Source of the DNA: Candidatus Woesearchaeota archaeon
Lineage (GTDB): Archaea; Nanobdellota; Nanobdellia; Woesearchaeales; DSVV01
Length of the DNA: 64,000 nucleotides
Reading direction: 5' to 3'
NCBI GenBank assembly: GCA_018661705.1
Contig: JABJHR010000010.1
Span: forward strand, 66,911 to 130,910
Below, one piece after another: positions 2,750-58,060 of the stretch. Both the position numbers and the translations under genes were made by a program. The notes beneath the pieces are model-generated. The model had not been told where the DNA came from. It was given only the letters and a program-made list of their open reading frames with translations, and did not search any database. The number at the start of each line of letters is the position of its first letter. Position 1 is the stretch's first letter.

Positions 2750-2845
2750 AGCGAGAAAAGAGCATCCGCAATTGTTGAAGAGTAATACACTACATCTCAC
2801 ACTACAACACTAGGTCCGAAGGACATGTTACTCACGAATTTTTTA
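2750..2845 (+). repeat. Repeat family A, intact copy (A1): ...TAGCGAGAAAAGAGCATCCGCAATTGTTGAAGAGTAATACACTACATCTCACACTACAACACTAGGTCCGAAGGACATGTTACTCACGAATTTTTT
   Basis: Near-identical copies at 11851-11946 and 37236-37342 (-). Terminal inverted ends TAGTGAG/CTCACTA, a GGTCC-NNN-GGAC hairpin, and a 3' oligo-T. Confidence 0.7.
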
Positions 2846-2891
2846 GAAAAATAGAATTTAAAAATAAGAATTATAATTAAAAATTAAAAAA

Positions 2892-3461
2892 TTACGAATG
2901 ATATGATTGCATCTCTCTATGGAAACTAGTATAGCTTTTTATTTTGATTCTACTTTCGTTTACTCTATTTCCACATTTTCTATCATCAAGGAATGTACTA
3001 ACATCACCTTTTACAAATGCTGCTTGTGGTTTGTCATAACCAAATTCTTTTGTAACAACAAAGTGTACATCACTGCCTCTGTCATGGAATACTCTCCAGT
3101 ATGCAAAAGATTTTTTTGCTTCTCCATCTACATTACTACCCATTCCACATCCAATACTTCCTCTATCTTTAATTTCTGCCATAGTTTCTAATAATGAAAT
3201 CATTGCTTCATGTTTTGTTATATCAACTTTTAAACTATCTCCCCAATAATCACTTAAAATTTCAGGAACATCAAACCAAACAGCATCATAAGCTGTTCCA
3301 TTACTACCGCCGTTTACAATACCTGTGCCGGTACTAGATACTGATCTTCCTTCATAGAATGCAAATGCTTGATCTCTAAATGTTTGTGCTTCTTCAAGAT
3401 ATTTTTCAAGTGTAAGTCCTTCTGTGTCTGTTGAATGTCTTGGCATATTATTTACCCCCAA
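2892..3461 (-). CDS. hypothetical protein
   Basis: 189-aa ORF with coding-like composition; no motif recognised. Confidence 0.4.
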   Translation of the reverse strand: MGVNNMPRHSTDTEGLTLEKYLEEAQTFRDQAFAFYEGRSVSSTGTGIVNGGSNGTAYDAVWFDVPEILSDYWGDSLKVDITKHEAMISLLETMAEIKDRGSIGCGMGSNVDGEAKKSFAYWRVFHDRGSDVHFVVTKEFGYDKPQAAFVKGDVSTFLDDRKCGNRVNESRIKIKSYTSFHREMQSYHS

Positions 3462-3565
3462 TTGTACTAATTTATGCTTGTTAACACATAGGTTATATTT
3501 AAATGTTTTGTTTCTGTAACTACTCGTGAGTAGTTCTTATGTCTTTTGTATTTTGAATTGGGATT

Positions 3566-3616
3566 GAGAAGCTCTAGAACACTAGGTCCATAGGACATGT
3601 CACTCACGAATTTTTA
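3566..3616 (+). repeat. Repeat family A, 3'-half fragment (ACACTAGGTCCATAGGACATGTCACTCACGAATTTTT)
   Basis: Matches the 3' half of A1/A2; the hairpin stem is retained with a different loop (ATA). Confidence 0.55.
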
Positions 3617-3729
3617 AAATAAATAATATTCTTCTAGCGAGAACTAATTGTATTTAATTATAAGAAAAAATAAAAATTAATTTTTTTCCATGTTTTAAAA
3701 TTGAAAATTTTAAAGCCAGAAAAACAGTT

Positions 3730-3909
3730 TTACTGTTTTTCCATGTATCCGCATTTGCCGCATGTGTCTCTGTTCTTATGTTTTGCCATGAACACAGCTG
3801 GGCCACATTTTGGACATGATTTATTTAATTTTTCTACTTTGTCTCCGGATACTTTATAATTTTTTGAAACATTAGATGTTCTTTTTGGTTTTTTCGGTTT
3901 CTTTGCCAT
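3730..3909 (-). CDS. rps27ae: 30S ribosomal protein S27ae (eS31); small gene not in the ORF track
   Basis: 59-aa reverse ORF MAKKPKKPKRTSNVSKNYKVSGDKVEKLNKSCPKCGPAVFMAKHKNRDTCGKCGYMEKQ. C4 zinc ribbon CPKCG...CGKCGY, immediately downstream of S24e as in the archaeal rps24e-rps27ae operon. Confidence 0.75.
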   Translation of the reverse strand: MAKKPKKPKRTSNVSKNYKVSGDKVEKLNKSCPKCGPAVFMAKHKNRDTCGKCGYMEKQ

Positions 3910-3918
3910 TTTATTTAC

Positions 3919-4437
3919 CTATTCTTTTTTTTCTTCAGCATTTTCAGCTGGCTTTGCTTCTTCTTTAGCAGGAGCTTCTTCTTTTTTCTCTTCTACTTTT
4001 TCTTCAGCCTTAGGTTCTTCTTTTTTTTCTTCTTCAGCTGGTTTTGCTTCTTTTTTAGCAGGAGCTTCTTCTTTTTTCTCTTCTACTTTTTCTTCAGCCT
4101 TAGGTTCTTCCTTTTTTTCTTCTTCAGCTGGTTTTTCAGCTTTTGGTTCTTCTTTCTTTTCTTCTTTATTATGTTTGTCTATTAGAACTTTGCCTTCTAA
4201 TCTTTCCATATATTTAGCGTCTTTGTAAACATGAGCAATAACTTTAGCAGTTTTTTGTCCATATCTTTGATAAATATGTCTGATAATAATAAGACTCTCA
4301 TCTGTTTTTAGTTTCTTTGCAATATCTTTTCTTAATTGAACTCTTGAAGGAGTTTTATTTTCAAAATCAACCATTGCACTAATTCTAGTTCTTTCTAACA
4401 GTGGTGTTTCCCTTTGTTTTGTGATCTCTAATTCCAT
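3919..4437 (-). CDS. rps24e: 30S ribosomal protein S24e with a C-terminal K/E/P/A-rich repeat extension
   Basis: N-terminal 100 aa MELEITKQRETPLLERTRISAMVDFENKTPSRVQLRKDIAKKL...IIIRHIYQRYGQKTAKVIAHVYKD is S24e-like. The C-terminal ~70 aa are (EEKKEEPKAEEKVEEKKEEAPAK)n, encoded by a ~93-nt tandem duplication at 3957-4142. Confidence 0.8.
   Translation of the reverse strand: MELEITKQRETPLLERTRISAMVDFENKTPSRVQLRKDIAKKLKTDESLIIIRHIYQRYGQKTAKVIAHVYKDAKYMERLEGKVLIDKHNKEEKKEEPKAEKPAEEEKKEEPKAEEKVEEKKEEAPAKKEAKPAEEEKKEEPKAEEKVEEKKEEAPAKEEAKPAENAEEKKE
3957..4142. repeat. ~93-nt tandem duplication inside the S24e 3' coding region
   Basis: Two nearly identical units, gcttcttc(t)tttagcaggagcttcttcttttttctcttctactttttcttcagccttaggttcttc..., seen directly. 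Confidence 0.8.
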
Positions 4438-4453
4438 CTTAATTCCCTCGACA

Positions 4454-4639
4454 TTATTTTACTTTTATTGCATATTCGCCTTTTTGTGCAATTCCAACTT
4501 GTTTTGCAATAAATGATTTTTCTGGATCGGCAATAAATAATCTTCCTTGCCAATTTGTTGAAAATGATGATGTTTTACATTCTGGACATTCACTTTCGTT
4601 TACGAATAATTTGCATCTTTTACATACTTTTCTTGCCAT
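4454..4639 (-). CDS. spt4: Transcription elongation factor Spt4 (RNAP subunit E'')
   Basis: 61 aa, zinc ribbon CKRCKLFVNESECPECK, C-terminal ...KGEYAIKVK; upstream of rpoE' as in the conserved operon. Confidence 0.75.
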   Translation of the reverse strand: MARKVCKRCKLFVNESECPECKTSSFSTNWQGRLFIADPEKSFIAKQVGIAQKGEYAIKVK

Positions 4640-4777
4640 TTTTATTACCTTCTATCTTGAGTTTTTATGCACAAAAATTTCATTTAAATTTTTGGCATCC
4701 TAAAAATCCGTTTGTCAAAATGGGTGTTACGACATACCCCTACCTTTAGGTTTGGGTGTGATACTCATGACGGATTT

Positions 4778-5380
4778 TTATGATTTTGCTTTAGCGCCTT
4801 TTGCTTTTGTTCCTTTTGTTGTTTTTTTAGCATCAGCAGCTGCTTTTTTTGCTTCTTCATCAATCCAGTCTAGTTTTCCAAGGCCATGTTGCCTCATTGT
4901 TAATCCTAGTTTTGGATTTGTTTGATCTTTATAACTAATAGCAATGATTCTTGCTCTGCATAAATCATTTACTTTTAAGCTTCTTTTACTTTCTTTTCCA
5001 GCTAAAGTTTTTTCTTTAGAAAAACTTACAAAATCATCCATTGTTTGGGAAATGTGAATCATTCCATCTAATGGGCCAACTGAAATAAATGCACCAAAAT
5101 CAGCAATGTCTTTGATTTTTCCAAGAACAACTTCTTGTAAATCTGGCTTGAAAACAAGTAAGTGGAACATTGTTTTATAATAAATAGCCCCATCACCAGC
5201 AATAATTATGCCTTGTGAAACTTCTTCAATATCAGAAACATCAATTACAACACCTAATTCCCTAGATATGTAACCATCATATTTCTCTCTGATTTGTTTT
5301 TGAATTGCTATTGTGGTATCTTCTCCGAATAATTTTGGGTCTACCCTTATATGATCCTCAATCTTTAGTTTGTAATACAT
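4778..5380 (-). CDS. rpoE: DNA-directed RNA polymerase subunit E' (Rpo7), S1 domain
   Basis: 200 aa with Rpb7-like N-terminus and S1-like fold, K/A-rich tail; operon context with spt4 and the PIN protein. Confidence 0.8.
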   Translation of the reverse strand: MYYKLKIEDHIRVDPKLFGEDTTIAIQKQIREKYDGYISRELGVVIDVSDIEEVSQGIIIAGDGAIYYKTMFHLLVFKPDLQEVVLGKIKDIADFGAFISVGPLDGMIHISQTMDDFVSFSKEKTLAGKESKRSLKVNDLCRARIIAISYKDQTNPKLGLTMRQHGLGKLDWIDEEAKKAAADAKKTTKGTKAKGAKAKS

Positions 5381-5451
5381 GAATTTTGCCTCCTTGCGTT
5401 GCTTTGTTAATGTAAGCTGTTTTATGTATTGTTTTTAATCTTAAGTACAAA

Positions 5452-5883
5452 TCAATAATTAACCAATTCTAAGTGGCTTTTCTGCCTTAAAACTATCACT
5501 CTTTTTAAATGTTTTTTTAATTCTTTGTCTGTTGTAGCTATAATATAGTCATTTTTGACTTCTTTTATTATATCATCAACATATTTATCTTTATATATAC
5601 TTATTAACTTCTTATTAGTTTTAATAGGGATTATATTAAGTTTTCCATCTTGAACCATATTTTCAACAAGTTTCAATGCGATGTTTACGGCCCGTTTAGT
5701 GGTTGTTTTCTGTTTCCTGGCCTTCTCTGGCAGTTTTTTGAGCTCATCAAGGCTTTTATCCAAAATATACAACTTATACTTGAAATGGCATATACGTTCA
5801 ATCTCTGTAAATATATCTACTCCAAAGTTTCCTGGAATCATAAGAAAGTTCGTATCTAACAGTATCTTTTCTTCATTGGGCAT
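5452..5883 (-). CDS. PIN-domain protein (Fcf1/Utp24-like), conserved partner of the rpoE operon
   Basis: 143 aa, N-terminal LLDTNFLMIP (PIN acidic motif), ...IIATTDKELK; position upstream of rpoE'/spt4 is conserved in archaea. Confidence 0.65.
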   Translation of the reverse strand: MPNEEKILLDTNFLMIPGNFGVDIFTEIERICHFKYKLYILDKSLDELKKLPEKARKQKTTTKRAVNIALKLVENMVQDGKLNIIPIKTNKKLISIYKDKYVDDIIKEVKNDYIIATTDKELKKHLKRVIVLRQKSHLELVNY

Positions 5884-5963
5884 TTATAAAGAAATGTAGT
5901 GGTTGATTTATAAACTTTACTATCTTTTTTATAGTAACTGTTTGAATTCTATTCAAAAGTTTT

Positions 5964-7232
5964 TCACTTATTTTTATTCTTTTTTTTCTCTAATTCTTTT
6001 TCTTTCTCAAACAATCTTTCTTTTTCATTTTCTAATGTTTTTTCTGGCGTTAAAAACCAATGATCAAATTTGCTGACAAAGGTTGCAACAATTAATGAGA
6101 ATAGCATAAATATAACTACTAGATTTAATATTGTTTGAAGTCCAGGTATTTCTGTAACTTTTGTTGCTAATGTAAACGCTACTACTGCTACAGCAATTCC
6201 TTTTGGAATGTTAAATGTCATGAATAGTTTTTCTTTTATTGTTAGTTTTTGTTTATTCATAGCCCACATTACTGCGGCGTATCTAATGCACAAATAAAAT
6301 ATAAACAGTATAAACGCTTTAATCCAAAAGATATAACTACTAAAAGGAACACTTATTCCAATTCCTACAAGAATAAAAACAAGTATCATTAATGAATTTT
6401 CAAATACAGAAGAGAAGCTATACAATTGTTCTTTCTGTTTAACATAAAAGTTTCCAAACATTAATCCCATTACTGTTACTGCTAAAACTCCGTTACCCCC
6501 TAAATTTTCTGCAAGAATATATGTTAAAAGTGCAGCAGTAATTAAAGCCAGAGGGCTTATTGTTTCTGAGTATGCTTTTTTCATTGCTTTTGCTACAATC
6601 AATCCAATTAAAACTCCTGCTCCAATTCCGACGACAAATTGGGTGATAAATGGTTTTAGGTTATCTAAAAGTTTTGAAAAAATAACTTCTTGTGCAGTTA
6701 ATGATTGCATTAAATCTAAAATAATAAATGGTAATAAAACAGTTAATGGCGTATTAACAATTGATTCAATTCTTAATAATTCTACTATTTTGTGGTTGCC
6801 TTGTTTTAGCATTGACAAAATAACATCGGGACTTGTTCCAACCATTATGCTGGAGAAAATTAATACTAAAAACACATCTTTGATTCCAAAAAGTAATGAT
6901 GTTGCAATTGCAAGTAAGAACATATTAAGTAATAAAAAGAAAAAAGCTAATTTTAATGCTCTTAATGTGTATTCATCAATCGTTTTCCATTTAAACCTAG
7001 AGGCAGCATCAAAAATAATCATAACTAAAGCAAGAACAGCTAACCCAGTTAAGAAAGTATGAGAAAACTGAAATAATTTTTCTCCATAATAAGTCATCTT
7101 AGACAAGATAATCCCTGAAATTAACAATAATAATAAATTAGAGGTTTTTAATTTTTTAGAAATAATTGCAATAAACACACCTATCAATAAAATTATAGCT
7201 ATGTTTGTTAAGTAAAGTAAATATTCTTCCAT
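5964..7232 (-). CDS. polytopic membrane protein, putative monovalent cation/H+ antiporter (CPA-like)
   Basis: 422 aa, about 11-12 hydrophobic segments, charged K/E tail; resembles NhaP-type exchangers by topology only. Confidence 0.4.
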   Translation of the reverse strand: MEEYLLYLTNIAIILLIGVFIAIISKKLKTSNLLLLLISGIILSKMTYYGEKLFQFSHTFLTGLAVLALVMIIFDAASRFKWKTIDEYTLRALKLAFFFLLLNMFLLAIATSLLFGIKDVFLVLIFSSIMVGTSPDVILSMLKQGNHKIVELLRIESIVNTPLTVLLPFIILDLMQSLTAQEVIFSKLLDNLKPFITQFVVGIGAGVLIGLIVAKAMKKAYSETISPLALITAALLTYILAENLGGNGVLAVTVMGLMFGNFYVKQKEQLYSFSSVFENSLMILVFILVGIGISVPFSSYIFWIKAFILFIFYLCIRYAAVMWAMNKQKLTIKEKLFMTFNIPKGIAVAVVAFTLATKVTEIPGLQTILNLVVIFMLFSLIVATFVSKFDHWFLTPEKTLENEKERLFEKEKELEKKKNKNK

Positions 7233-7488
7233 TGTTTCCCTCTTTTTTTTAAAATATTCTTACTATTGTATATGTACTTATTTATTAGATTATTTATAAA
7301 TATTTTGTATATTGTGTGTAACCTTTCTTTACTCTGCAGTAGTCCTAAACCAAAAAATATATAAATGATCTCTTTCCCCATATCTGTATTAGAGTACCAA
7401 AAGGGAGTGATTTCTTTGAGTCTTGAGGTGATCCAAAGTTAACAATTTGTCTTTTTTAAACAATTAGACATCTAACTAAGGTGAAAAT

Positions 7489-7605
7489 ATGGCAGGGAAA
7501 GTAACAGGTAAAGGCAAGAAAGGCCTAAAAGAAATTATGAACAGAACACGGTTTGACAAGTATGAATTAGAAGAATACATGCTTACAGACAAAGGTTTTC
7601 AATAA
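7489..7605 (+). CDS. small basic protein (38 aa) MAGKVTGKGKKGLKEIMNRTRFDKYELEEYMLTDKGFQ
   Basis: AGGTGA ribosome-binding site 6 nt upstream; below the ORF-track length cut-off; could be a small ribosomal-type or DNA-binding protein. Confidence 0.3.
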   Translation: MAGKVTGKGKKGLKEIMNRTRFDKYELEEYMLTDKGFQ

Positions 7606-7661
7606 AATTTTATTTTTTTCATAAAAAGCTTTTTATAGTGGATGTAATATAATTCTAGTTT

Positions 7662-8249
7662 ATGAAATACATTATTGAACATTTAGATGGACGTTTATAC
7701 AAATGGTGTTTTTTAGAATATAAACATATTTCTAAAATAGTCGGAAAAAGCAGCATTCTATTTACAAACGTGAATGGAGTGAAAGCACGTGAAAAACTAG
7801 GTCCGTCAGGACATGTTTATCATGAAAGTTTTACAGATTCTGAAAATATAACAAGAAAGAAAATATGCGTTTTAGATCCAAATGCTAAACAAATATTAAC
7901 AACTTCTGATAAAAATAAATTTGATTATCTTGTTTTTGGTGGGATTATGGGTGATTACCCTCCGAAAAAAAGAACAAAAGGCTTTTGTACTAAAATGCGA
8001 GAGAAAGGAATTAAATTTGAAACAAGAAATATGGGTAAAGAACAAATGTCAACAGATACTGCAGTTCTTGTTGCAAAAATGATAATGGATGGCAAAAAGT
8101 TTAATGAAATCAAATTCAAAGATACAATTATTATTGATATTAATGATTGTGAAGAAGTTGAGTTACCATTTAGATATGTTCTTAAAAATGAAAAACCAAT
8201 TCTTGCACCAGGTTTAGTTAAACATTTGAAAGAAAGAGGATATTTTTAA
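7662..8249 (+). CDS. conserved hypothetical protein (possible SPOUT/Tsr3-like RNA-modification fold)
   Basis: 195 aa; motifs VLDPNAKQIL and DYLVFGGIMGDYPP are weakly reminiscent of Tsr3/DUF367. Not secure. Confidence 0.35.
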   Translation: MKYIIEHLDGRLYKWCFLEYKHISKIVGKSSILFTNVNGVKAREKLGPSGHVYHESFTDSENITRKKICVLDPNAKQILTTSDKNKFDYLVFGGIMGDYPPKKRTKGFCTKMREKGIKFETRNMGKEQMSTDTAVLVAKMIMDGKKFNEIKFKDTIIIDINDCEEVELPFRYVLKNEKPILAPGLVKHLKERGYF

Positions 8250-8313
8250 AAACCAATTGTCGTAGTGTTTAATACACTGCATACTTTTATACTCTCATCT
8301 TCTATCATTTATT

Positions 8314-9258
8314 ATGGTATTAAATGATTATGGGTTCCTAACAGCATTTGATATAAATCCAGATAATGCAAGAGATAGAGTTAGGTTTCTTTTTAATGAA
8401 TTAGGAGTTGTTCATTTTCAGTTTTACGATGCAATGGAAAGATATGAAATTCCAATTGTTCCTGATAAAAAAGAATGGCATGATCCTATCGGCAGAACAA
8501 TAAAAAGAGAAACCCTTGATGCTTATGTAGACGAGATCAGAAAAGTTGGAGGTGCCAGTTGGTTTTATACGGGTATCTACAGCGTATCCCCTGGTTTTGT
8601 AATGCCTGGTCTAGAAAAAGCTTTATTTTCTTTTTTAGAAGATAAACAAGAGTTTGCCCAAGAATGGTTTTGTCTTGATGATAACCCTGATTGGGCATTT
8701 GTTTCAATAGTAGACCCTTCAACTGAAGAGTGGAAACAGCATTATACAGAGCAATTAAAGATTGTTGTTGAAAATCTTGGTTTTACAGGAATACATTTTG
8801 ATCAGTATGGTAGTCTTGATGTAAGATGGAAATTTAGGTATAAACCAGATGTATGGTCATTTGATAATATACATGACCCTGATTGTTTTGAAGAGGTTAA
8901 TAAAATAGAATTAATAATTGATTTTTTGAAATATTTTAAACAGGAGATGCCTAATGTGGGTGTTACATTTAATGCAGCAGATGGTTATGGTCTTGTTGAA
9001 ACGCAAAATCTTACTGATTTTCCCTATATAGAACTTTGGAATGATCATTCAATAGAACATTATTGTTCAAAGCTTAAAAATACTGGTAAGTTTGTAGTTG
9101 CAGCTTATAATTCTTCTGATGGAAAAACTTTTGACAGAAGTTTGTTTGAAAAGAGAAATGCTATTATTAATAATGCAGGTGGTGATTTATTGTTTAGAGG
9201 AGATGATAATAGGTATTTAGTTAATTGTTATTTTCCAAGTGCAATAAAACTAAATTAA
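8314..9258 (+). CDS. TIM-barrel glycoside-hydrolase-like protein (GH66/GH114-like)
   Basis: 314 aa; ...FTGIHFDQYG..., aromatic-rich, alternating beta/alpha pattern. Confidence 0.35.
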   Translation: MVLNDYGFLTAFDINPDNARDRVRFLFNELGVVHFQFYDAMERYEIPIVPDKKEWHDPIGRTIKRETLDAYVDEIRKVGGASWFYTGIYSVSPGFVMPGLEKALFSFLEDKQEFAQEWFCLDDNPDWAFVSIVDPSTEEWKQHYTEQLKIVVENLGFTGIHFDQYGSLDVRWKFRYKPDVWSFDNIHDPDCFEEVNKIELIIDFLKYFKQEMPNVGVTFNAADGYGLVETQNLTDFPYIELWNDHSIEHYCSKLKNTGKFVVAAYNSSDGKTFDRSLFEKRNAIINNAGGDLLFRGDDNRYLVNCYFPSAIKLN

Positions 9259-9365
9259 CATCCCTCTGCAGTTTAGATTTTCAGAAAAAGATTATATTTG
9301 GATAATCTTTTAATTCATTTTTGAAATCATAACCCATATAAACTACCTAATTAATAATTAAGACT

Positions 9366-10094
9366 ATGGATTCATTAATTTTAATTTTAATCATATCTGT
9401 ACTTGGACCAATTATTGGCTCATTAATTGGAGTAATTAAGAAACCATCACAAAAATTCATGTATAATATGATGGCATTTGCAGCAGGTGTGATGATGGCA
9501 ATTTCTTTTCTTGAATTAATTCCTCAAAGTATTGAGTTATCATCTGTTTGGTTATGTGCAATTGGTGTTTTAATTGGTGCATTGATTATGTATCTCTTGG
9601 ATAAATTAATTCCTCACATCCATCCTGAACTTTGCAGGCAAGAACATGGTTGTCAATTAAGAAAAACTTCAATTTATCTTCTTTTAGGAATTTTTTTACA
9701 TAATTTTCCAGAAGGTATGGCAATTGCTGTGGGTTATGTTTCAGGAATTAAAGTTAGTTTAACAATTGCATTAGGGATTGCAATTCATAATATTCCAGAA
9801 GGCATTTGTACTTCTGCTCCTTATTTTAGTTGTACTGGTAAACGACTAAAATCATTTTTGCTTTCATCTGCTACTGCAATTCCAATTTTACTTGGATTCT
9901 TCTTTGCTAAGTTTCTTTATGGAGTTATTTCAATGAATTTTATTGGTGTTGCAATTGCAGCAACAGCTGGTTTAATGATATATATCTCTGCAGATGAACT
10001 TATACCTTGTTCTTGCTGTGAAAAATCAGATCATAGTAACATATTTTCTTTAATTGCAGGTGTAATTTTTGTTGTGTTACTTGGGTTATTATAG
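9366..10094 (+). CDS. zupT: ZIP-family zinc/iron permease (ZupT-like)
   Basis: 242 aa, 8 TM segments, signature HNFPEGMAIAVG and HNIPEG. Confidence 0.75.
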   Translation: MDSLILILIISVLGPIIGSLIGVIKKPSQKFMYNMMAFAAGVMMAISFLELIPQSIELSSVWLCAIGVLIGALIMYLLDKLIPHIHPELCRQEHGCQLRKTSIYLLLGIFLHNFPEGMAIAVGYVSGIKVSLTIALGIAIHNIPEGICTSAPYFSCTGKRLKSFLLSSATAIPILLGFFFAKFLYGVISMNFIGVAIAATAGLMIYISADELIPCSCCEKSDHSNIFSLIAGVIFVVLLGLL

Positions 10095-10267
10095 TTCTTT
10101 TCTTACTATTCAGTGGTTATCTACCAAAACCTTTATAAAAACTAGTAAAATACATCTATTTGGGGAAATAAAATGTTAAACTTACTAATTCCTTAAACTC
10201 AAAATTAAAAAATACACAAAATACACACAAAGGTTTTATTACAAATAAATGTTTATAATATAATAAA

Positions 10268-11794
10268 ATGGTACGAACATTATTAGACACAGTTGAATTT
10301 GATGAGATCCCTGTATTTGGGAAACCTATTTTATCAGACCTTGTTTTAGAAAATCTTGAAGGAGCCACTAGAAGGATGACCTCTTATGGTGATGATATGG
10401 GTGATGAGGGGGATGAAAGTTTACGAAATTATGCATTTTCTCCAGATGGTCCTAGTTCAGATTCTTTTGGTTCTGATGCTGGTCTACAATCAAGAAGAAT
10501 GAGATCAAGCGGTGATGCAAGAACAGAACAAGTTGCTCCTACTTCAGACTTAGGTGGTATTGATAGTAGTCAAGGACTTCCTGGTGATGATGACGTAGTT
10601 ATGATTTCTTTGTTAAGTTCAACTGAACATGAAAGAGAAGTATTACTAGAAACTATTTCTGCGAAACCAGATGAAATTGTTACATTAGAACAGATTTTAT
10701 CAGAGTCATATAAAGACAGAATTGAGATTACTAGTATTAATGAATTCTCTGCAACAAGAAAACAAGTTAAGGAAGTACATTTTCTTAAAGGAGATGGGGA
10801 TTGGCTTAACAAAGTATGGATATTCAAAGCAGATCCAGTAGAAACAGCAAGAGAATTAATGATTTATCATTTAGCACATAAACATGGGATTCCTACTGGA
10901 AAACCAATTGGTTATAATCCTACGCCTGATCAAACTTATCCTTTTGACATTGCAATTTTAGGGGGAGTAGTTGAACATGCAGGTGATCCGTACAGAGATT
11001 TACTTAGAAATATGAGATTAAGACCAATAAGAATTTTTGACACTGCAAAACAAATTGCAAGAATCATTGCAGATTATCATGTTAAGCTAACGCTTGTAGA
11101 AGACGAATTTACAAAAGCAGGTGTTTCTTTAGAAACTTCTAGTCCTAGAAAAGAACTTGGTGAAAGATTTTTAGCAGGATTAAGAATTACAGAGGAAAAC
11201 GGAGAAGAACTATTGAAAGCTTGTGATGATTTATACAATCTTCAATCTGGTGTTAATGTTGTTTCTCATGGAGATATTCATTTAGGAAATCTTGTTACTG
11301 TGAAAAGAAAGCATGAAACAAGTATTAATCAATTTGGAGTTATTGATTGGGGATCAATTGTAAAAGATAATCCTTTTGGTGATCTATGGGATTTTTGGAT
11401 ACATCATAGAAGAGATACAATTGATGCAACTGGTAATGGTTATAGTTATACTTTTGAAAGATTTGCAGCAGCTTATTTAACTAGAATTAATGCTTTACGA
11501 ACAGAATATCGTGTTAATATTGATTTGCCTTCAGGTATTAATCCTGTAGATTCTCCAATACAATCTTCATTATGGAATTTGTATGAAATGTATGATCCTG
11601 TTAGAACAGATGCTAGAGATATTCAGAAAAAAGCATCATTCCATTGTTTGGAATTATGGCGTTCTTTAGATAAGGTTGAGAAATTTGGTGGCCAATACAG
11701 AGAAACAGTTCACACAATTAAAAAAGAACTAACAAGATTACTTGACAGCAAGAATTATTTAAAACCATATATGGTTGTTGGCGGATTGAGATGA
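10268..11794 (+). CDS. aminoglycoside/choline-kinase-like phosphotransferase (APH fold) with a ~100-aa G/D/S-rich disordered N-terminal region
   Basis: VVSHGDIHLGNLV (HGD.H.GN catalytic loop) and GVIDWGS (DWG/DFG-like); 508 aa. Confidence 0.6.
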   Translation: MVRTLLDTVEFDEIPVFGKPILSDLVLENLEGATRRMTSYGDDMGDEGDESLRNYAFSPDGPSSDSFGSDAGLQSRRMRSSGDARTEQVAPTSDLGGIDSSQGLPGDDDVVMISLLSSTEHEREVLLETISAKPDEIVTLEQILSESYKDRIEITSINEFSATRKQVKEVHFLKGDGDWLNKVWIFKADPVETARELMIYHLAHKHGIPTGKPIGYNPTPDQTYPFDIAILGGVVEHAGDPYRDLLRNMRLRPIRIFDTAKQIARIIADYHVKLTLVEDEFTKAGVSLETSSPRKELGERFLAGLRITEENGEELLKACDDLYNLQSGVNVVSHGDIHLGNLVTVKRKHETSINQFGVIDWGSIVKDNPFGDLWDFWIHHRRDTIDATGNGYSYTFERFAAAYLTRINALRTEYRVNIDLPSGINPVDSPIQSSLWNLYEMYDPVRTDARDIQKKASFHCLELWRSLDKVEKFGGQYRETVHTIKKELTRLLDSKNYLKPYMVVGGLR

Positions 11795-11850
11795 TACGTT
11801 TTTTAATTTTGATTTCTCTAATAAGAATTTAATAAAGAATAAAAGTCCTA

Positions 11851-11946
11851 GTGAAAAAGAGCATCCGCCGGTGTTGAAGAATATTACACTGCATGTCACA
11901 CTACAACACTAGGTCCGAAGGACATGTCACTCACTAAGATTTTTTA
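11851..11946 (+). repeat. Repeat family A, intact copy (A2)
   Basis: GTGAAAAAGAGCATCCGCCGGTGTTGAAGAATATTACACTGCATGTCACACTACAACACTAGGTCCGAAGGACATGTCACTCACTAAGATTTTTTAG, about 85% identical to A1; downstream of a + gene. Confidence 0.7.
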
Positions 11947-12002
11947 GAAACCCTTATGTTTTCTTAAACACATCTTATTAAAACACAAGATTCAAACAAA
12001 TA

Positions 12003-35427: not shown

Positions 35428-35428
35428 A

Positions 35429-48572: not shown

Positions 48573-48600
48573 TTGTTCTTATACTTTCAAAGTTTTATTA

Positions 48601-49002: not shown

Positions 49003-49038
49003 AAAAACACTAATTTTATATACTATTTTCACAATGGA

Positions 49039-49734
49039 ATGCATATGAGAACTAAAATCATTGCAACTATTGGCCCTGCTTCTATGAAAAAAGTTAAACA
49101 AATGTGTAAAGCAGGAATGCATATTGCAAGGATTAATACGAAATATGGTAAAACCAAAGAGTATGAAAAGATTGTTTCTGATTTAAGAAAAACAAAATGT
49201 AAAATTATGTTTGATATTAAAGGTCCTATGCATATTGAATGGTTAAAGAAAAAAGATTTTGATTTTATTGCGGTTTCTTTTGCTCAAACAGCTAAACAAA
49301 TTAGAGAAATAAGAAAAGCATTTTCTCCAAGACGAATTAGAATTATCTCAAAGATTGAAAACAGAAAAGGTTTTCACAATTTAGCAGAGTTAATCAGAGA
49401 AAGTGATGGAATAATGGTGGCAAGAGGAGATTTAGGAAGACATGTTCCATTTGAAGAAGTTCCAATACTTCAAAAATTAATTATTAGAAGATGCAATAAA
49501 AAAAATACAATGGTAATCACTGCAACTGAGATGTTATTATCAATGGTTAAATCTAAAATTCCAGAAAGAGCAGAAGTAAGTGATGTTGCAAATGCAATAT
49601 TAGATGGCAGCAATGGAGTAATGCTATCAGAAGAGTCTGCTATTGGCAAACACCCTGTATTAGCTGTCCAAACAATGGCTAAAGTGATTACTTGCACTGA
49701 GAAGAATATGGGTAGATTGAGTGTTTGTGATTGA
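49039..49734 (+). CDS. pyruvate-kinase-like protein, truncated (231 aa; PK barrel motifs only)
   Basis: MRTKIIATIGPAS...AGMHIARINTKYG (PK N-terminus) and ITATEMLLSMVKSKIPERAEVSDVANAILDGSNGVMLSEESAIGKHP (PK active-site region). No B-domain insertion and no C-terminal domain. Confidence 0.5.
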   Translation: MHMRTKIIATIGPASMKKVKQMCKAGMHIARINTKYGKTKEYEKIVSDLRKTKCKIMFDIKGPMHIEWLKKKDFDFIAVSFAQTAKQIREIRKAFSPRRIRIISKIENRKGFHNLAELIRESDGIMVARGDLGRHVPFEEVPILQKLIIRRCNKKNTMVITATEMLLSMVKSKIPERAEVSDVANAILDGSNGVMLSEESAIGKHPVLAVQTMAKVITCTEKNMGRLSVCD

Positions 49735-49921
49735 TTACTTTAAGTGATGTATTAAGCTACAACAAATGTTGTATTATTTTTCATTAATTTTAACCATTTA
49801 GGCGGCTCCGACAAAATGGTCTGTAAACTCTTTTTCTGTTATATTTCATTTTATTGATACTACCAAAACGATAAAATACCATTAATTTTATAAATAGATT
49901 CTTGTTTTTAAATTCTAACGC

Positions 49922-50072
49922 GCCAGCGTGGCACAATCTGGTACTGCGCAAGCCTGGAAATGTGCTTTTGCGCAAAGGTTAGCTTGTTGGCTTCGGCCTA
50001 TCCCGGTTCAAATATCAAACTGTGTTTAATACACAAAAAAACGCAGTTTTTTTGAATGTCCGGGCGCTGGCG
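49922..50072 (+). tRNA. tRNA-Ser (anticodon GGA) with two putative introns (37/38, 21 nt; T-loop, 46 nt)
   Basis: Hand-folded. Acceptor GCCAGCG/CGCTGGC, U8, 3-bp D-stem GCA/TGC, anticodon stem CAAGC/GCTTG with loop CUGGAAA, long variable arm TTGGCTTCGGCCTAT, T-arm CCCGG-TTCAAAT-[intron]-CCGGG, discriminator G, oligo-T. Mature length 84. Confidence 0.5.
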
Positions 50073-50140
50073 TTTTTTTATCTATCTAAGCTATTTCTTT
50101 CCATCAATTTTAAATATAACAATCTTTATAATATAATTTT

Positions 50141-51520
50141 ATGAAAAAAATGTATTATATTGTTATTATTGTTCTAATTATATTATTTATATTTGTGGCA
50201 GCTCCAGAGAATGAGGAAGTAGTTGAGGATTTGCATGGGCAAGCAGGTGAAGTATACATGCCTGCTGAACAAAACTCTATAATAGATGATATTGAAGAAC
50301 AACCAATTCAAGAAGTAGAACAAAATCAGAAAATAAAGAATGAACCTAAAATTAATCCTCCCTTTGTACCACCACCAATTGAACATATTGAAGAAAGACC
50401 TGAACCACCACAACCTGTTTCTGAATTTCAAAGTTGTGGTGATAAGATGGATTTATTAACTCATTCGCCTTTAGATTATGATGATTTTATTAACATTGTT
50501 CCTTTAGGTAATCTTAATCCTTCTGGACATACATTTCCAACTGATCATATCTATTGGAGATTACGTCCTAAAAATACTAATAAGCCTTACATACTATCAA
50601 TAACATCTCCGTTAATTTCTCCAGGAGATGGTTGGATAACTGAAATAAGTTCTTCAGAACATCTTTATGCTACCCCTACTTTTACAGATTATAGTTTTAA
50701 ATTAGTTTTTTGTGAAGAGTTTAATATAGAATTTGGTCATGTAAGTTCTTTATCTGAAAAATTAGAAAAAGCATTTGATAATGCAAAAAGAAATTGTGAT
50801 AAATATGATACAGGGGGAGGTGGTTATGCAAATTGTTGGACTGAAGAATTAACTAAGTTAAAAGTTTCAGCAGGAGAAGTCATAGGGACAGCTGGTGGTA
50901 ATCCTGATCAAGATGCATTAGATATTTGGGCACATGATTTTAGAATCACACCATTAAATTATGTCAATCCTAAACGATGGGATGAATTTAGTTTACATGT
51001 TGTTTGTGCTTTAGATTATTTTGTAGATGAGGAAAAAGAAAAGTTTTATGATCTATTAGGTGGTTATAGTCCTTCTGCAGATAAAGATAAGAAAAGAACA
51101 ATTGAACCTTTATGTGGAACAGTTGAACAAGACATTAAAGGAACTGCACAAGGTGTTTGGTTTATTGAAGGAACACCACAAAAAGTTTCATATAGTGAAG
51201 ATTCTCATCTTGCATTAGTTACTGATAATATTGCTCCTGACTTTAATGTGTTTTCTGTTGGAACTTCTACTGAAATAGAATCCGATACATATCTTTTTGA
51301 ACCAGAAAAAACAGGAGATGTTAATATTGCATTTGCTGATGTAAGGCCCGGAAAAACATATTGTTATGAACCATTTAAACCTTGGGAACCTACTAAAGGA
51401 TATGGTTTTGTTATTTTATTAGAACTTTTAGATGAAGAAACATTAAAGATTGGAAAAAACCAAGGAAAAAGATGTAAGAAACCTTATTCTTTTGATGATT
51501 ATGTGATGTTTGAAAGGTGA
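50141..51520 (+). CDS. secreted/membrane-anchored protein with Pro-rich linker, unknown function
   Basis: N-terminal hydrophobic signal/anchor MKKMYYIVIIVLIILFIFVAA; 459 aa. Confidence 0.45.
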   Translation: MKKMYYIVIIVLIILFIFVAAPENEEVVEDLHGQAGEVYMPAEQNSIIDDIEEQPIQEVEQNQKIKNEPKINPPFVPPPIEHIEERPEPPQPVSEFQSCGDKMDLLTHSPLDYDDFINIVPLGNLNPSGHTFPTDHIYWRLRPKNTNKPYILSITSPLISPGDGWITEISSSEHLYATPTFTDYSFKLVFCEEFNIEFGHVSSLSEKLEKAFDNAKRNCDKYDTGGGGYANCWTEELTKLKVSAGEVIGTAGGNPDQDALDIWAHDFRITPLNYVNPKRWDEFSLHVVCALDYFVDEEKEKFYDLLGGYSPSADKDKKRTIEPLCGTVEQDIKGTAQGVWFIEGTPQKVSYSEDSHLALVTDNIAPDFNVFSVGTSTEIESDTYLFEPEKTGDVNIAFADVRPGKTYCYEPFKPWEPTKGYGFVILLELLDEETLKIGKNQGKRCKKPYSFDDYVMFER

Positions 51521-51595
51521 TGTCTGGGAGTAACCACTTCTGAGTAGATATTATTCAAAAACTTTATAAATCCATATGTGATCTTTTGTTGTAAT

Positions 51596-52345
51596 ATGGG
51601 GGAAGACTTTAAATTAACTGAGTTTGAAAGAGTATTAGATTTCCACACACATGTTGGTGAAGGTAGAATGACTTCTTTTTCTGTGTCTCAATTAGGAAAA
51701 GCAATGTCAGAAAGTGGAGTTACGGATGCAATTATTTTTCCTTTTGGTGTTGAAGGTCCAATTTCTGAAACTAAAAGTCTTAAACTAGTGAAAGAAGTAG
51801 AATATTTTCCAAATTTATTTCAATTTTTAAGGTTTGATCCTAAAACAATGACTCCTGAAAGATTATCAGAATTATTACCTTTATTCTATGGTGTAAAACT
51901 TCATTCTAAATCAGAAAATTTTGATCCTATTAATCCAACTTTTTTTCCATTATATGATGTTATTGCTAACTCAGGAAAACCTTTATTGTTTCATACAATG
52001 GTTTGCAATTATCAAAATACTCACCCAGATAGAATTGTTGCCATCACAGATGAAATTCCAGATCTAGTTTTAGTATTGGCACATTTTTGTGATTGTTTTC
52101 CTGGTTTACTTGATAAAATAAAAACTAATGATAATATCTATTTAGAAACTTCCCTCGGAAGATCATCCCCATATTCAATCTGTTCTGCAGTTGATAAAAT
52201 TGGTGAAGATAGAATTTTATTTGGTTCTGATGCACCATATGGTGATCAACTAATTGAAAGATTAAACGTTGAGAGAACTAAATTAAGTTACAAACAAAAA
52301 GAAAAAATTCTTTACAGGAATGCTGCAAGACTTTTAGGGCTTTAA
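51596..52345 (+). CDS. amidohydrolase-2 family metal-dependent hydrolase (TIM barrel)
   Basis: LDFHTHVGEG (HxH metal-binding motif) near the N-terminus, ...FGSDAPYG near the C-terminus. ATG at 51596 is preferred over the GTG at 51578. Confidence 0.55.
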   Translation: MGEDFKLTEFERVLDFHTHVGEGRMTSFSVSQLGKAMSESGVTDAIIFPFGVEGPISETKSLKLVKEVEYFPNLFQFLRFDPKTMTPERLSELLPLFYGVKLHSKSENFDPINPTFFPLYDVIANSGKPLLFHTMVCNYQNTHPDRIVAITDEIPDLVLVLAHFCDCFPGLLDKIKTNDNIYLETSLGRSSPYSICSAVDKIGEDRILFGSDAPYGDQLIERLNVERTKLSYKQKEKILYRNAARLLGL

Positions 52346-52384
52346 TAACAAGTAAATTCAAAAATTTCTTTTCAAATTTTTCTA

Positions 52385-52876
52385 TTAATTCATGACAACA
52401 TAATAAATATCTTTTTCTCCACCAACACCTATTGCATCTCCGTCTGAGTTTGTTGAATATCCATATAAACCATCTTTTTCAACACTAACTTTTCCAGGTA
52501 TCTTGAATGATTGTCCAGCTTCAAATGTGCCGCAGTTAATATTATCTCCGTCTTCTTCACACCCCCAATAATTTTCTTCTGCATTACTTTTAATTCTAAT
52601 TCCAACTGCAGAATAATCAGAAAGATATGGTCTTACAGTATCTGCTGTTGTTACATCATCAACTATAAGAATTTGATAACTACATTTTCCAGAGGCCATA
52701 CAAACAATTGTATTAGGAGCAATAATTCCTTCCACAATTACATCTTTCCCTATTAATTCATTATTTCCAATAATATCTGAAGGTTTGTAAACATCAACTT
52801 CTTGTTCAATTACCTTTTTTGTGCATCCAAATGTTAGAACAATTAATATTAGTAGTAAGATAGTTTTATATTTCAT
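52385..52876 (-). CDS. secreted lipoprotein, unknown function
   Basis: Signal peptide plus LTFGCTKK lipobox. Confidence 0.45.
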   Translation of the reverse strand: MKYKTILLLILIVLTFGCTKKVIEQEVDVYKPSDIIGNNELIGKDVIVEGIIAPNTIVCMASGKCSYQILIVDDVTTADTVRPYLSDYSAVGIRIKSNAEENYWGCEEDGDNINCGTFEAGQSFKIPGKVSVEKDGLYGYSTNSDGDAIGVGGEKDIYYVVMN

Positions 52877-55483: not shown

Positions 55484-55569
55484 AATAGAAAGGTTACAAT
55501 TGGGGTATAAATAGTTTTTGCTGTTTTTTAGACATTTCTAGTAATATTTGACTTAAAAAACAAAATTCA

Positions 55570-55835
55570 CGAGAAACATGTCCTTCGGACCTAGTGTTGT
55601 AGGAGTTATTACTTTCTTTTATGATACAAAAAATAACAACTGGGCCAGATGAGGCAAAGCCGAATAGGATATTTTACAAAGTAAAATGTCCGTCTGTGCC
55701 GTTGTTGTTATTGTTGCTTGATGTTAATCATGTTTAATAATTTCGACTTTAGTCGTAATTATTATTGTTTTTTGCTAATGCTTTGTTTACTAAATAAAAT
55801 TACAATTGCGAATGCTACTTTTCTCACTAATATTT
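55570..55835. repeat. Composite element: A 3'-half (reverse), B copy (B5, 55632-55712, forward), spacer, A 5'-half (reverse)
   Basis: acatgtccttcggacctagtgttgtag ... AATAACAACTGGGCCAGATGAGGCAAAGCCGAATAGGATATTTTAC-AAA-GTAAAATGTCCGTCTGTGCCGTTGTTGTT ... ttacaattgcgaatgctacttttctcactaa. Confidence 0.65.
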
Positions 55836-55916
55836 AGTTTTTTACTTTAATTTAAAGATTGATTAAGATAATTTCGCACAAAATATAAATACTTCTTAAC
55901 TATTAATAACTAAATC

Positions 55917-57866
55917 ATGAAAAAAACAATACTTGTTTTAATAATGGTCTTCTTAGTGAGCATTTCTATGGTTTTTGCTACCGATTGTGTATGGAAGAAG
56001 GTCATGGAGAGCTCTACTGAGTACAAAGGTCTTTTTGAAAATAAAGGCGACGTTTATGTTGCAGAAGCTGGAAAAATTCATTTTTCTGAAGATTATGCAA
56101 CTACATTTGAAGAATATGGTGAAAAAGAAACTTCTACATTTATAGATTTAGAATTAGATGGTAATGATTTAATTGCTGTATCCACAAAAGCAGCGTATTT
56201 AGTAGAGGATGATGGAAAGGAGAAAAAGTTTACAAAGTTTTTTGAAACTGATCCAATGGATAAATTTAGTTTGTTCGTAGCAATTGGTTCTGATTTTTAT
56301 GGTACTGATGGAAGTGAAAAAATAATTTTTAAAGACGGTACAGATAATGAAGACCAAATTGGAGAAGAAACAGCAGCTCTTACTGGTGTTTCTGATATTT
56401 CAGAGATGGTTAATATTGACAAACAATTATGGGTTGTTCCCAAAGCAGATTCAAAGTTACATTATTCCAAAAACCCATTAGACGTTTGGTATACAACTGC
56501 AAACATGGGAAGTATTCAAGACCTAGGGAATGTTAATTCAATTGGTGATAATGTCTATATTACTGGTAGAAAGAAAGGTGAAGATCTTAAAATTAAATTT
56601 ACAGTAACAGATAGTTCTTCATGGAGTGATTATCCTGCACAAATAATTGGTGTTGAAGAATTTAATGCATTATTAATGTTTGAATCTACCAACCCATTTG
56701 CTTTAGTTAAGTTAAATGATGGTTCTGTTAAAATCTATAAACAATATTCTAACACAGAATGGAAAGAATATGGGACTGGATTAGGAGCAGAAATTGTTGG
56801 TGGTGTTAGTTTAATTAAAATGAGTAATGATAAATTACTTCTTTTGGCGAATACAACCGGAGATAAAAATGCATTGTTAAGATGTGAACCAAATAGTAAA
56901 CCTGTTGCTAAAGCGGGCTTAGATCAAAAAGTTTTTGTTGGTGAAACAGTTAAATTGGATGGTACAAAATCATTTGATTCTGACGGTGACAAAATGAGTT
57001 ATGATTGGCAACAACCAGCTGTTGATAAAGTAATGTTAACTGGTGGTACGACTTCATCTCCTGAATTTTTAGCTTCTACTGCTGGAAAATATTTATTTAA
57101 TCTTTTTGTTCAAGATGAGTTTGGTGGAGCATCCTCTCCCGATACTGTTGTTGTTGACGTCATAAAGGGAACAGAATATTATTTAGGGTTAGAATCTGAA
57201 ACCGATCATTTTTCTTGGGTAGAGGGTAATGATTACAAGTTAGGTAGTGTTTTCTTTGATGGAAGCAAACAAAATGATTATTACTTAGCATTTAAATTTT
57301 ATCCAGGAGTTGGTAATGTAGTTAACACACCACTTCCTTTTGCAACAGCAACTTCTACAAGTATTTTCACAAATAAACCTGTGCAGAAAGTTATATTCAA
57401 TGACGTTAATAGTATTAAAATTGCGTCCGTCTACCTTAAGTCTAGTGCAAATTTAGAAGCAAAAGGTGATGATGTAACTTTAAAGATTAGAAAAGGAAGT
57501 ATTGGTGGTGAAGTAATTGCAGAATCTACACAATTTGTTTCAAAGAAAACTTATCCAGAGTGGGTAGAGTTTGTTTTTGCAGGAGCTGGTGATAATGTTG
57601 ATGTTAGCGACGAAGCAGATACAAGCGACGACGTTGATACTGAAGAAACAGAAACAGAAGAAGATACAACAACTACTGACACAACTAAATCTAGCGACGA
57701 CAAAGAAGTAACAACTGATGCAGACGAAACAAAAGATGATGAAACAAAAACAACAAATGCAATGTTTGGATTATCCAAATGGATGGCTGCTGGTATTGTT
57801 GGAGTTGTTTTATTAATAATAATTGCAGTTGTTGTTTTAATATTTCTTTTGGCAAGAAAGAAGTAG
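55917..57866 (+). CDS. cell-surface protein with PKD domain, acidic Thr/Asp-rich stalk and C-terminal TM anchor plus basic tail (possible archaeosortase-type substrate)
   Basis: Signal peptide; PKD motif KPVAKAGLDQKVFVGETVKLDGTKSFDSDGDKMSYDWQ; C-terminal ...MAAGIVGVVLLIIIAVVVLIFLLARKK. Confidence 0.55.
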   Translation: MKKTILVLIMVFLVSISMVFATDCVWKKVMESSTEYKGLFENKGDVYVAEAGKIHFSEDYATTFEEYGEKETSTFIDLELDGNDLIAVSTKAAYLVEDDGKEKKFTKFFETDPMDKFSLFVAIGSDFYGTDGSEKIIFKDGTDNEDQIGEETAALTGVSDISEMVNIDKQLWVVPKADSKLHYSKNPLDVWYTTANMGSIQDLGNVNSIGDNVYITGRKKGEDLKIKFTVTDSSSWSDYPAQIIGVEEFNALLMFESTNPFALVKLNDGSVKIYKQYSNTEWKEYGTGLGAEIVGGVSLIKMSNDKLLLLANTTGDKNALLRCEPNSKPVAKAGLDQKVFVGETVKLDGTKSFDSDGDKMSYDWQQPAVDKVMLTGGTTSSPEFLASTAGKYLFNLFVQDEFGGASSPDTVVVDVIKGTEYYLGLESETDHFSWVEGNDYKLGSVFFDGSKQNDYYLAFKFYPGVGNVVNTPLPFATATSTSIFTNKPVQKVIFNDVNSIKIASVYLKSSANLEAKGDDVTLKIRKGSIGGEVIAESTQFVSKKTYPEWVEFVFAGAGDNVDVSDEADTSDDVDTEETETEEDTTTTDTTKSSDDKEVTTDADETKDDETKTTNAMFGLSKWMAAGIVGVVLLIIIAVVVLIFLLARKK

Positions 57867-57918
57867 TTTTTTTAATTTTTTATTTCTTTTAATTTAACTT
57901 GTTAAAAAACAAAAATTT

Positions 57919-58060
57919 GTGAGTGACATGTCCTTCGGACCTAGTGTTGTAGAGATTAATTATTTTCTTTTATGATACAAAAATAACAACAATGGCCAGG
58001 CGAGGTTAAACCGAGTAGTATTTTTTCGACAGAATGGAGAAAAAATGCGTCTGTGCCATT
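57919..58060. repeat. A 3'-half (reverse) followed by a B copy (B6, 57980-58060, forward)
   Basis: gtgagtgacatgtccttcggacctagtgttgtag ... AACAACAATGGCCAGGCGAGGTTAAACCGAGTAGTATTTTTTC-GACAGAATGGA-GAAAAAATGCGTCTGTGCCATTACTTGGTGTT. Confidence 0.65.

Follow-up and report, generated by a model that had tools for sequence, protein, structure and literature searches.

A modular, lineage-specific family of non-coding repeats with MITE-like features in a marine Woesearchaeota genome

What is the short element that recurs intact, in halves and interrupted by a second element along 64 kb of a Candidatus Woesearchaeota archaeon (31% G+C; contig JABJHR010000010.1, positions 66,911 to 130,910; this whole stretch is called the window)? 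An earlier sequence-only reading had named the element family A and the interrupting one B, and offered a composite mobile unit, repeated insertion of B into A, and a terminator or 3' untranslated region element as explanations. We found that A is repeated and dispersed, has terminal repeats, is non-coding and lacks RNA structure, is present or absent at the species level, is accompanied by an independent element B, and takes part in chimeric junctions that have been duplicated. At a little better than even odds (about 0.55), we consider A to be a lineage-specific, non-coding, modular repeat family resembling transposable elements of the miniature inverted-repeat kind (MITEs) in the genome of this marine DPANN archaeon.

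Copies, anatomy and position of A

An nhmmer profile built from the three intact window copies and run across the window matched these copies at 2736-2859(+), 11836-11960(+) and 37346-37235(-) with E 1e-36 to 1e-38, four 3' arms at 57953-57909(-), 55602-55558(-), 3573-3630(+) and 45313-45272(-) with E 9e-12 to 3e-8, and three 5' arms at 45521-45471(-), 48420-48464(+) and 30773-30713(-) with E 9e-8 to 1.5e-5. A further 5' arm, 55832-55802(-), is weak on its own (E 0.03) yet matches the 5' motif exactly. A repeat search of the window (D2, D5, D8, D11, I1-I15) recovered full copies and single arms alike, and in it the two forward copies, A1 and A2, are 85% identical across 96 nt. The hairpin core ACTAGGTCCNNNGGACAT occurs 7 times in the window versus 0.00 expected from shuffles, and AGCATYCGCAATTGT has 6 exact occurrences and one chance-like match with 2 mismatches versus 0.25 expected. 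Direct reading, repeat search and nhmmer all place three intact, four 3' half and four 5' half copies where the sequence-only reading had put them; its figure of about 85% identity for the forward pair stands, and seven of the eight arms have E-values (9e-12 to 1.5e-5) that set the half copies apart from chance matches. The tally per 64 kb is 3 intact copies, 8 arms and 1 core within a gene. Copies outside the composites described below are as follows.

2736-2859 (core 2750-2845), plus strand: intact copy A1, nhmmer E 7.5e-38, between the convergent genes DUF7121 (1806-2690, +) and open reading frame (ORF) 2892-3446 (-).
11836-11960, plus strand: intact copy A2, nhmmer E 2.3e-37, between the convergent genes 10268-11794 (+) and 12003-12908 (-).
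37235-37346, minus strand: intact copy A3, nhmmer E 2.7e-36, 49 nt beyond the stop of gene 37395-39236 (-) and upstream of the 77-aa gene 36924-37157 (-).
30713-30773, minus strand: solo 5' arm, nhmmer E 1.5e-5, with exact AGCATCCGCAATTGT, 20 nt beyond the stop of gene 29134-30693 (+).
3533-3660, plus strand: solo 3' arm (3573-3616 plus T-run), nhmmer E 2.3e-9; the linker ahead of it (3533-3572) resembles that of the type-2 composites, and 3533-3612 matches a composite on metagenome contig L007 (blastn).
3635-3660: degenerate 5' arm CTAGCGAGAACTAATTGTA after the 3573-3616 arm, a tail-to-head remnant.
7793-7826, plus strand: core of the A 3' arm, AAACTAGGTCCGTCAGGACATGTTTATCATGA, with a 4-nt loop, the 12th copy (arm-only hidden Markov model, E 6.3e-6).

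The mobile interpretation in the sequence-only reading hung on A occurring beyond the window, and it does. Ribosomal and transcription proteins of archaeal type are encoded in the window, whose ribosomal protein P0 has its best named relatives in Woesearchaeota (73-74% identity), and window positions 40141-52833 are identical to a contig of the metagenome-assembled genome (MAG) GCA_018663845.1. A 21-kb stretch of a different contig of this MAG (L019), which with the window makes up the 85 kb seen, has two intact A copies and one B, and the family is therefore dispersed in the genome. Further A copies were found by a pattern scan in metagenome contigs L002, L004, L006 and L007, and the gene adjoining the L004 copy is located on L019. 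Scans of viral contigs with the A and B patterns gave chance matches only, none upheld by profiles, and a scan of a reference-genome collection with the core pattern gave a single chance-like match, in a Bacteroidetes MAG.

Seven intact copies and fourteen arms were aligned to derive the anatomy of A. The unit reads TAGTGA-AAAAGAGCATCCGCAATTGTTGAAGAGTATTACACTGCATGTCACACTACAACACTAGGTCCGAAGGACATGTCACTCAC-NAA-T5-7 and is about 95 nt long (core length 89-97 nt), or about 115 nt including its ends, with pairwise identities of 68-91% among intact copies and a G+C content of 40-46% (genome 31%). Imperfect terminal inverted repeats, AAAAWTCYTAGTGAG / CTCACNAANTTTTT, are seen in every intact copy, and with their flanks they read AAAAWTCY-TAGTGAG (5') and CTCAC-NAA-TTTTT (3'), the 7-nt core TAGTGAG pairing with CTCACNA with one variable position. 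The sequence-only reading had described terminal inverted repeats followed by T5-6; the repeats are real and the oligo-T tail is present (T5-7), but the repeat itself reaches into the flanking A-run and T-run, so that the oligo-T belongs to it and a T-run closes the reverse strand as well. The 5' arm (AGCATCCGCAATTGT) is the more variable portion, and in L006 it is swapped for an inverted copy of an A3-type 3' arm, while the centre is an imperfect palindrome, GTTG...CAAC. Conservation is strong in the 3' arm, at whose core a 4-bp hairpin stands in constant surroundings, CTAG-GTCC-N3-GGAC-ATGT. As had been noted from the letters, the stem (GTCC/GGAC) is invariant among window copies and the loop is GAA, ATA or GTA; outside the window, copy L019b has lost its T-A pair on both sides (GGCC-GAA-GGC), and the L022 hairpin has the loop GGA and one stem change that pairs solely as G-T, on the reverse strand. 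All 18 specified core bases are invariant in 7/7 window copies, and elsewhere the copies differ by 10-30%.

The core at 7793-7826 lies in frame within a conserved SFM1-like methyltransferase gene (7662-8249), where it encodes LGPSGHVYHE. Orthologues of this gene have equal length and unrelated bases at this stretch. To judge from this comparison, the copy looks like a short gene-conversion patch whose frame was kept by the 4-nt loop.

A shows no sign of being a structured RNA or a gene. Its fold has no excess stability over shuffled sequence (z about 0 for the A strand and between 0 and -1.8 for the reverse strand), 0/22 predicted pairs have a compensatory change in a six-copy alignment (consensus energy -7.4 kcal/mol), no Rfam match to A was returned at gathering thresholds over the whole window or in E-value mode on three A/B loci up to E 5-10, and the scan for tRNA and tmRNA found none. 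The sole ORF through A3 has 26 aa, and in A1 and A2 a stop or frameshift interrupts it. We rejected a coding mini-gene, as stops and frameshifts vary from copy to copy, and likewise the template of a diversity-generating retroelement, as copy differences are not adenine-specific and no reverse transcriptase was recognised.

All seven intact copies have one end 20-50 nt beyond a stop codon, most arms lie 10-50 nt beyond one, and A and B together occupy about 16% of the intergenic DNA of the window; convergent spacers are 200-330 nt long with A versus a median of 23 nt without it. The sequence-only reading had placed the intact copies just 3' of genes in the same orientation, of which the 3' location is right; as to orientation, of the seven three are co-oriented with the upstream gene, two anti-oriented and two ambiguous, for A1 and A2 lie between convergent genes and their orientation carries no information. 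Further, every upstream gene of the intact window copies has its own T6-T7 tract ahead of A. The mixed orientation and the gene's own preceding T-tract leave the proposed terminator or 3'-end role unsupported, as do the missing fold and covariation and the absence of A at syntenic sites of relatives (see below). The position data fit insertion at tolerated sites better than a dedicated terminator.

A broader form of this idea, in which host selection keeps A, or at the least its 3' arm with hairpin and T-run, because it terminates transcripts in both directions, stabilises RNA 3' ends or is bound by a host protein, is in our judgement unlikely, and it is the alternative that survives best. It would account for the seven intact copies and most arms lying 10-50 nt past a stop, for a T-run on the outgoing strand at both ends of A, for a core that is invariant in the window though the loop varies (and that in L019b lost one pair on both stem sides), and for the persistence of the core in other species. 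It sits poorly with the T6-T7 tracts before A and the count of orientations, with a composite (at 55 kb) that occupies a divergent promoter region, with the lack of a significant fold or covariation, with the 20 nt between hairpin and T-run, with a bacterial-type terminator scan of 2600-12100 in which neither A1 nor A2 nor the 3573 arm showed a terminator-like site, and with orthologous genes in related species that manage without A. In the MITE-like reading that we prefer, the T-run on the outgoing strand at each end means that an A copy may incidentally reinforce termination both ways, as a side effect and not as the reason for the family.

Directly beside A3, a small convergent overlapping gene pair (36639-37157; 98 aa on the plus and 77 aa on the minus strand) is toxin-antitoxin-like.

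Element B and the A/B composites

B folds as a three-way junction (fold z-scores about -3 to -5) made up of a long AT-rich outer stem, GGCCAG../..CUGUGCC, a small GA/GA-flanked hairpin and a variable third hairpin, and it carries its own AT-rich terminal repeats. Among 11 copies, 10/21 pairs have compensatory changes and almost none is broken. A covariance model found 12 strong copies among the loci examined. B stands at 12926-13037(-), 14298-14405(+), 45327-45463(-), 48473-48583(+), 55619-55725(+) and 57970-58083(+) in the window and also in L002, L007, L019, L022 and L111. No Rfam family matched B. On these data B has the look of a structure under selection, as RNA or single-stranded DNA, rather than of a repeat in decay. 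The first two window sites stand alone, and the solo copy at 12926-13037 indicates that B exists independently of A.

12926-13037, minus strand: solo B, nhmmer E 7.6e-9, covariance model 77 bits.
14298-14405, plus strand: solo B, covariance model 102.9 bits, fold z -2.9.

A further subfamily of B, whose enlarged second helix ends in CUCC-UUC-GGAG, was detected solely via the covariance model at 22940-23072(+) and 62252-62348(+) in the window and at 1492-1614 in the related-species contig L010, in whose 20 kb no A was detected.

Three suggestions about B were tried and rejected. The copies at 12933 and 55622 read C(U/A)GAUGA...GAA, as in a hammerhead ribozyme, but A6 and A14 are altered in other copies, there is no A15.1-U16.1 pair and the Rfam search gave no hammerhead match. 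Co-orientation of B with downstream genes (5/6 in the window, 8/12 overall) is not significant. A kinship of A and B, which the sequence-only reading had drawn from the resemblance of AACAATTGCGG in the A 5' core to AACAACAATGGCC at the B 5' end, is not borne out, as profile cross-searches gave E >= 0.5 in a database of about a dozen sequences.

B lies inside or beside A at four loci of the window (45272-45521, 48420-48583, 55558-55832 and 57909-58083), oriented like A at 45 kb and 48 kb but against it at 55 kb and 57 kb. The earlier statement that B occurs beside A halves in either orientation is therefore right, and its number of loci rises from three to four with 48420-48583. Two module orders were distinguished. 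In type 1 (45 kb and 48 kb), a 5' arm running to about position 53 is followed by a linker and a same-orientation B. In type 2 (55 kb, 57 kb, the 3.5-kb remnant and L007), the 3' arm is followed by a linker, an opposite-orientation B, a hairpin (module C) with a T-run, a module X and a short 5' arm, and the middle of A is missing.

45272-45521, minus strand: type-1 composite, with 5' arm 45521-45471, B 45463-45327 and 3' arm 45313-45272; the B has an enlarged P2 hairpin, and a diverged A middle, TATCTCACCACATTATAAAATT, lies between B and the 3' arm.
48420-48583, plus strand: type-1 composite without 3' arm, with 5' arm 48420-48464, linker and B 48473-48583.
55558-55832, minus strand: type-2 composite, with 3' arm 55602-55558, linker, B 55619-55725 (+), C 55716-55775, X and 5' arm 55832-55802, this short arm stopping at CAATTGTA.
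57909-58120, minus strand: type-2 composite without 5' arm, with 3' arm 57953-57909, linker, B 57970-58083 (+) and C 58057-58120.

Read directly, the 45-kb composite has TATTA ahead of B and TATCT behind it, possibly the trace of B insertion with a short target duplication, with which these letters are compatible. The left junctions of the two type-1 composites are homologous (45442-45504 versus 48431-48493, inverted repeat I3, 63 nt at 83%), and so are the junctions of the type-2 composites (55599-55675 versus 57950-58026, direct repeats D3/D5). This homology within each type indicates that the chimeras were copied as units. The X and 5' arm of the 55-kb composite are 84% identical to the units of a tandem array at L002 5757-6060(-), in which three to four units of an A 5' arm to CAATTGTA plus X follow one another with a period of about 96 nt and an intact A stands at the end. 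In L022 and L111, B is on the outer side of the arm, and A and B thus associate repeatedly without a single fixed architecture. Between a composite mobile unit and repeated insertion of B, each of the two earlier suggestions is therefore partly right: B is independent and found alone, yet the junctions are duplicated between loci.

Module C (55716-55775 and 58057-58120) follows B in both type-2 composites as a hairpin, AATAATTYCGAC-TTTA-GTCGRAATTATT, and then a T-run. With a TATA-like TTTTATGATA just upstream of B, B-C could be a small transcription unit, as predicted from these signals.

Loci in related genomes

All retrievable strains are 99.9-100% identical to the window, and among homologues of the gene beside A2 the identity falls from 100% directly to 53%. 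In two related species (proteins about 60-85% identical), the 20 kb syntenic to window 1-21 kb contain no A. The gap between the DUF7121 and S27e genes, which in the window contains A1, a lineage-specific ORF and a 3' arm, measures 1040 nt in the window versus 2 nt in L014. A block at 10268-17447, comprising A2 and two B, is missing between the same flanks, the GH66-like and NAGidase genes, in L010.

The aminotransferase locus offers a comparison at the 3' end of orthologous genes. In the window species an intact A is located there; L022 (79% identity) has B, an inverted B and an A 3' arm; L111, L110 and L025 (76% identity) have neither A nor B; and L026 (68% identity) has a different sequence in which neither was detected. 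Further, L111 has the hairpin core twice, each running on into a different conserved sequence, and the core is thus common to different repeat families of related species. Presence and absence at syntenic loci is therefore seen at the species level, A being absent from the syntenic sites in L010-L014, L025, L110 and L111. Counted by species, A is missing at syntenic sites in three related ones, and two more have nothing of it but the hairpin core of the 3' arm, in differing contexts.

Some details of these loci were recorded besides. ORF 2892-3446(-), of 184 aa, is bracketed by an intact A and a same-orientation 3' arm; L014 does not have it between the same flanks, where L010 has an unrelated ORF instead. 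No Pfam, NCBIfam or PHROG match was found for it as a candidate transposase, one of the REP-associated tyrosine transposase (RAYT) kind included, REP standing for repetitive extragenic palindrome. The 10268-17447 block is a repeat-rich accessory region of about 7 kb with six genes (kinase-like, PhoU-like, ARPP-1, HAD, metallophosphatase and one of no assigned type). Downstream of the aminotransferase in L026/L027, 11353-11400(+) reads ACTAG-GGAC-GAA-GTCC, which is the A hairpin context with the same loop and a flipped stem; about one chance match is expected in the sequence scanned.

Origin of the family and what it means

How would such a family arise? We infer that A transposes, with an enzyme acting in trans and the hairpin core as its recognition site. 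A would be copied or moved at the DNA level by a transposase or recombinase supplied in trans, not encoded in the 85 kb seen, which would recognise the A ends and/or the hairpin core. Copies would survive at the safest spots of a compact genome, 20-50 nt past stops and beyond the T-tracts of genes, in either orientation. Halves could come about by four routes, which are partly shown: insertion of the unrelated, independently spreading, structured B into A (type 1), replacement of the A interior by B, C and X modules (type 2), partial tandem duplication, and truncation. The chimeras would then be recopied as units, and ectopic recombination or gene conversion among copies probably keeps the core uniform and may once have written it in frame into a housekeeping gene. 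Nested and chimeric forms are typical of MITE families.

Classical examples of prokaryotic MITEs are the Correia elements of Neisseria and the SM elements of Sulfolobus. A resembles prokaryotic MITEs, among them those of archaeal and DPANN genomes in a published catalogue (PMC11602168), in its size of about 100 nt, its non-coding nature, its terminal inverted repeats and its many dispersed intergenic copies, and moreover in being lineage-specific, in its nested and truncated forms and in being able to carry terminator-like signals. It differs from them in that no target duplication or partner transposase has been demonstrated, in its A/T-run ends, and in having an internal sub-terminal hairpin, not the termini, as its most conserved part; the likeness is one of features, not a sequence match. 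In a census of MITEs, a Woesearchaea genome had 105 MITEs per Mb, among the highest values in archaea (PMC11602168), and with so high a density already reported, this kind of element is already known.

Several points weigh against the MITE-like reading. With every retrievable strain at 99.9-100% identity to the window, insertion polymorphism between strains is not seen. A target-site duplication around A was not demonstrable: the 5' end reads TA in 11/12 copies and the 3' end in 3/13, and no close relative offers an empty site. The 85 kb of window and L019 yielded no recognisable transposase, integrase or HUH protein. The invariance of the core and its presence in at least two other species fit selection as well as descent from an active master, and the strict location just beyond stops could mean function, not tolerance.

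Two known systems of modular or in-gene repeats were compared as well. The BOX elements of pneumococci are modular repeats of the form boxA-boxB(n)-boxC. A is like BOX in having a 5' module, an optional middle and a 3' module, with end modules that are partly complementary and a position that is intergenic and gene-proximal. Here, however, the middle module B is autonomous, with its own terminal repeats, a covarying three-way junction and either orientation, solo B copies outnumber those inside A, no homology to BOX sequences exists, and the elements belong to an archaeon. Rickettsia palindromic elements (RPEs; cited in PMC3733652) are repeats of a reduced genome that occur in frame within protein genes. 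A shares with them the reduced genome and one copy in frame in a conserved protein gene, but that copy is a 33-nt replacement with no length change versus orthologues and not the insertion of a whole element, and the other A copies are intergenic.

The core suggests a further, speculative possibility, to which we give less weight than to a host-selected element: this stretch of roughly 20 nt, CTAG-GTCC-N3-GGAC-ATGT, may be what a dedicated protein acting in trans recognises, for instance a domesticated REP/RAYT-like nuclease or recombinase, and form with B a lineage-specific recombination or regulatory system that shapes accessory regions. The core is common to repeat families of at least three Woesearchaeota species, invariant in the window and in frame in a housekeeping gene, which points to such a recognition site. 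We know of no description of a domesticated nuclease or recombinase of this kind in DPANN archaea. Because the core is invariant and is used again in other species, the host-function and REP/RAYT-like readings stay in play as alternatives.

The second of these, in which a domesticated, RAYT-like tyrosine transposase of the HUH class, or a different dedicated nuclease with one gene in the genome, recognises the core as a single-stranded DNA hairpin, and A and the core repeats of sister species are its products, seems to us improbable. Like REPs and REPINs with their RAYTs (PMC3733652; PMC3116915), A shows a short conserved hairpin whose surroundings are fixed, an occasional copy within a gene, and clustered or tandem arrangements; the same core of about 16-22 nt stands in different repeat contexts of three species, its position downstream of genes, between tandem or convergent ORFs and once within a gene matches published REP behaviour (PMC3733652), tail-to-head and tandem arrangements exist, and the change in the L022 stem is tolerated solely through G-T pairing of the reverse strand. 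REPs are defined by a hairpin stem of 5-13 bp and an adjacent GTAG or CGTC tag (PMC3733652), whereas the stem of A has 4 bp, no such tag adjoins the hairpin (a GTAG comes no closer than about 10 nt, on the reverse strand), the hairpin is embedded in a longer unit bounded by terminal inverted repeats, inverted doublets are not the rule, and no RAYT or other Y1/HUH protein was seen in the 85 kb; GTAG and CGTC families are, moreover, reported from bacterial phyla only in the REP survey (PMC3733652). Least probable of all is that each A or A/B composite is a small-RNA gene transcribed independently from its own AT-rich promoter to a T-run terminator, for although A follows an upstream T-tract and AT-rich sequence, ends in T5-T7 and exceeds the genome in G+C (40-46% versus 31%), and B, C and the composites fold far better than shuffles (z -3 to -5), there is no TATA-like box at a fixed distance, A itself has neither fold nor covariation, the loci are very dense (9 A loci in 64 kb) with truncated and chimeric copies common, and A is absent from sister species.

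Two other observations lie outside A and B. A motif, AAATCTATCAATCGTTTCTGT, occurs at 16071-16126, 17471-17526 and 18668-18723, where three successive minus-strand genes, MutS among them, have their 5' ends; it may represent a shared promoter or operator, or else a conserved N-terminus. Intergenic short tandem heptamer-like repeats (ACTACCA/ACTTCAA units) at 23878-23957 and 1747-1781 are unrelated to A and B.

For annotators, the defined family carries a caution, namely that A and B elements should not be taken by default for terminators or small-RNA genes. The profiles and coordinates of the A family provide a marker for tracking strains and species in metagenomes, and a defined family is a handle for finding the responsible transposase. 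B is a well-supported structured element without a known family, and B and the hairpin core are the parts most worth following. As DPANN genomes are very small, it matters that non-coding repeats take up about a sixth of the intergenic DNA here. The A and B repeats mark lineage-specific gene blocks and recombine into chimeras, and they are likely drivers of genome plasticity in this archaeon.

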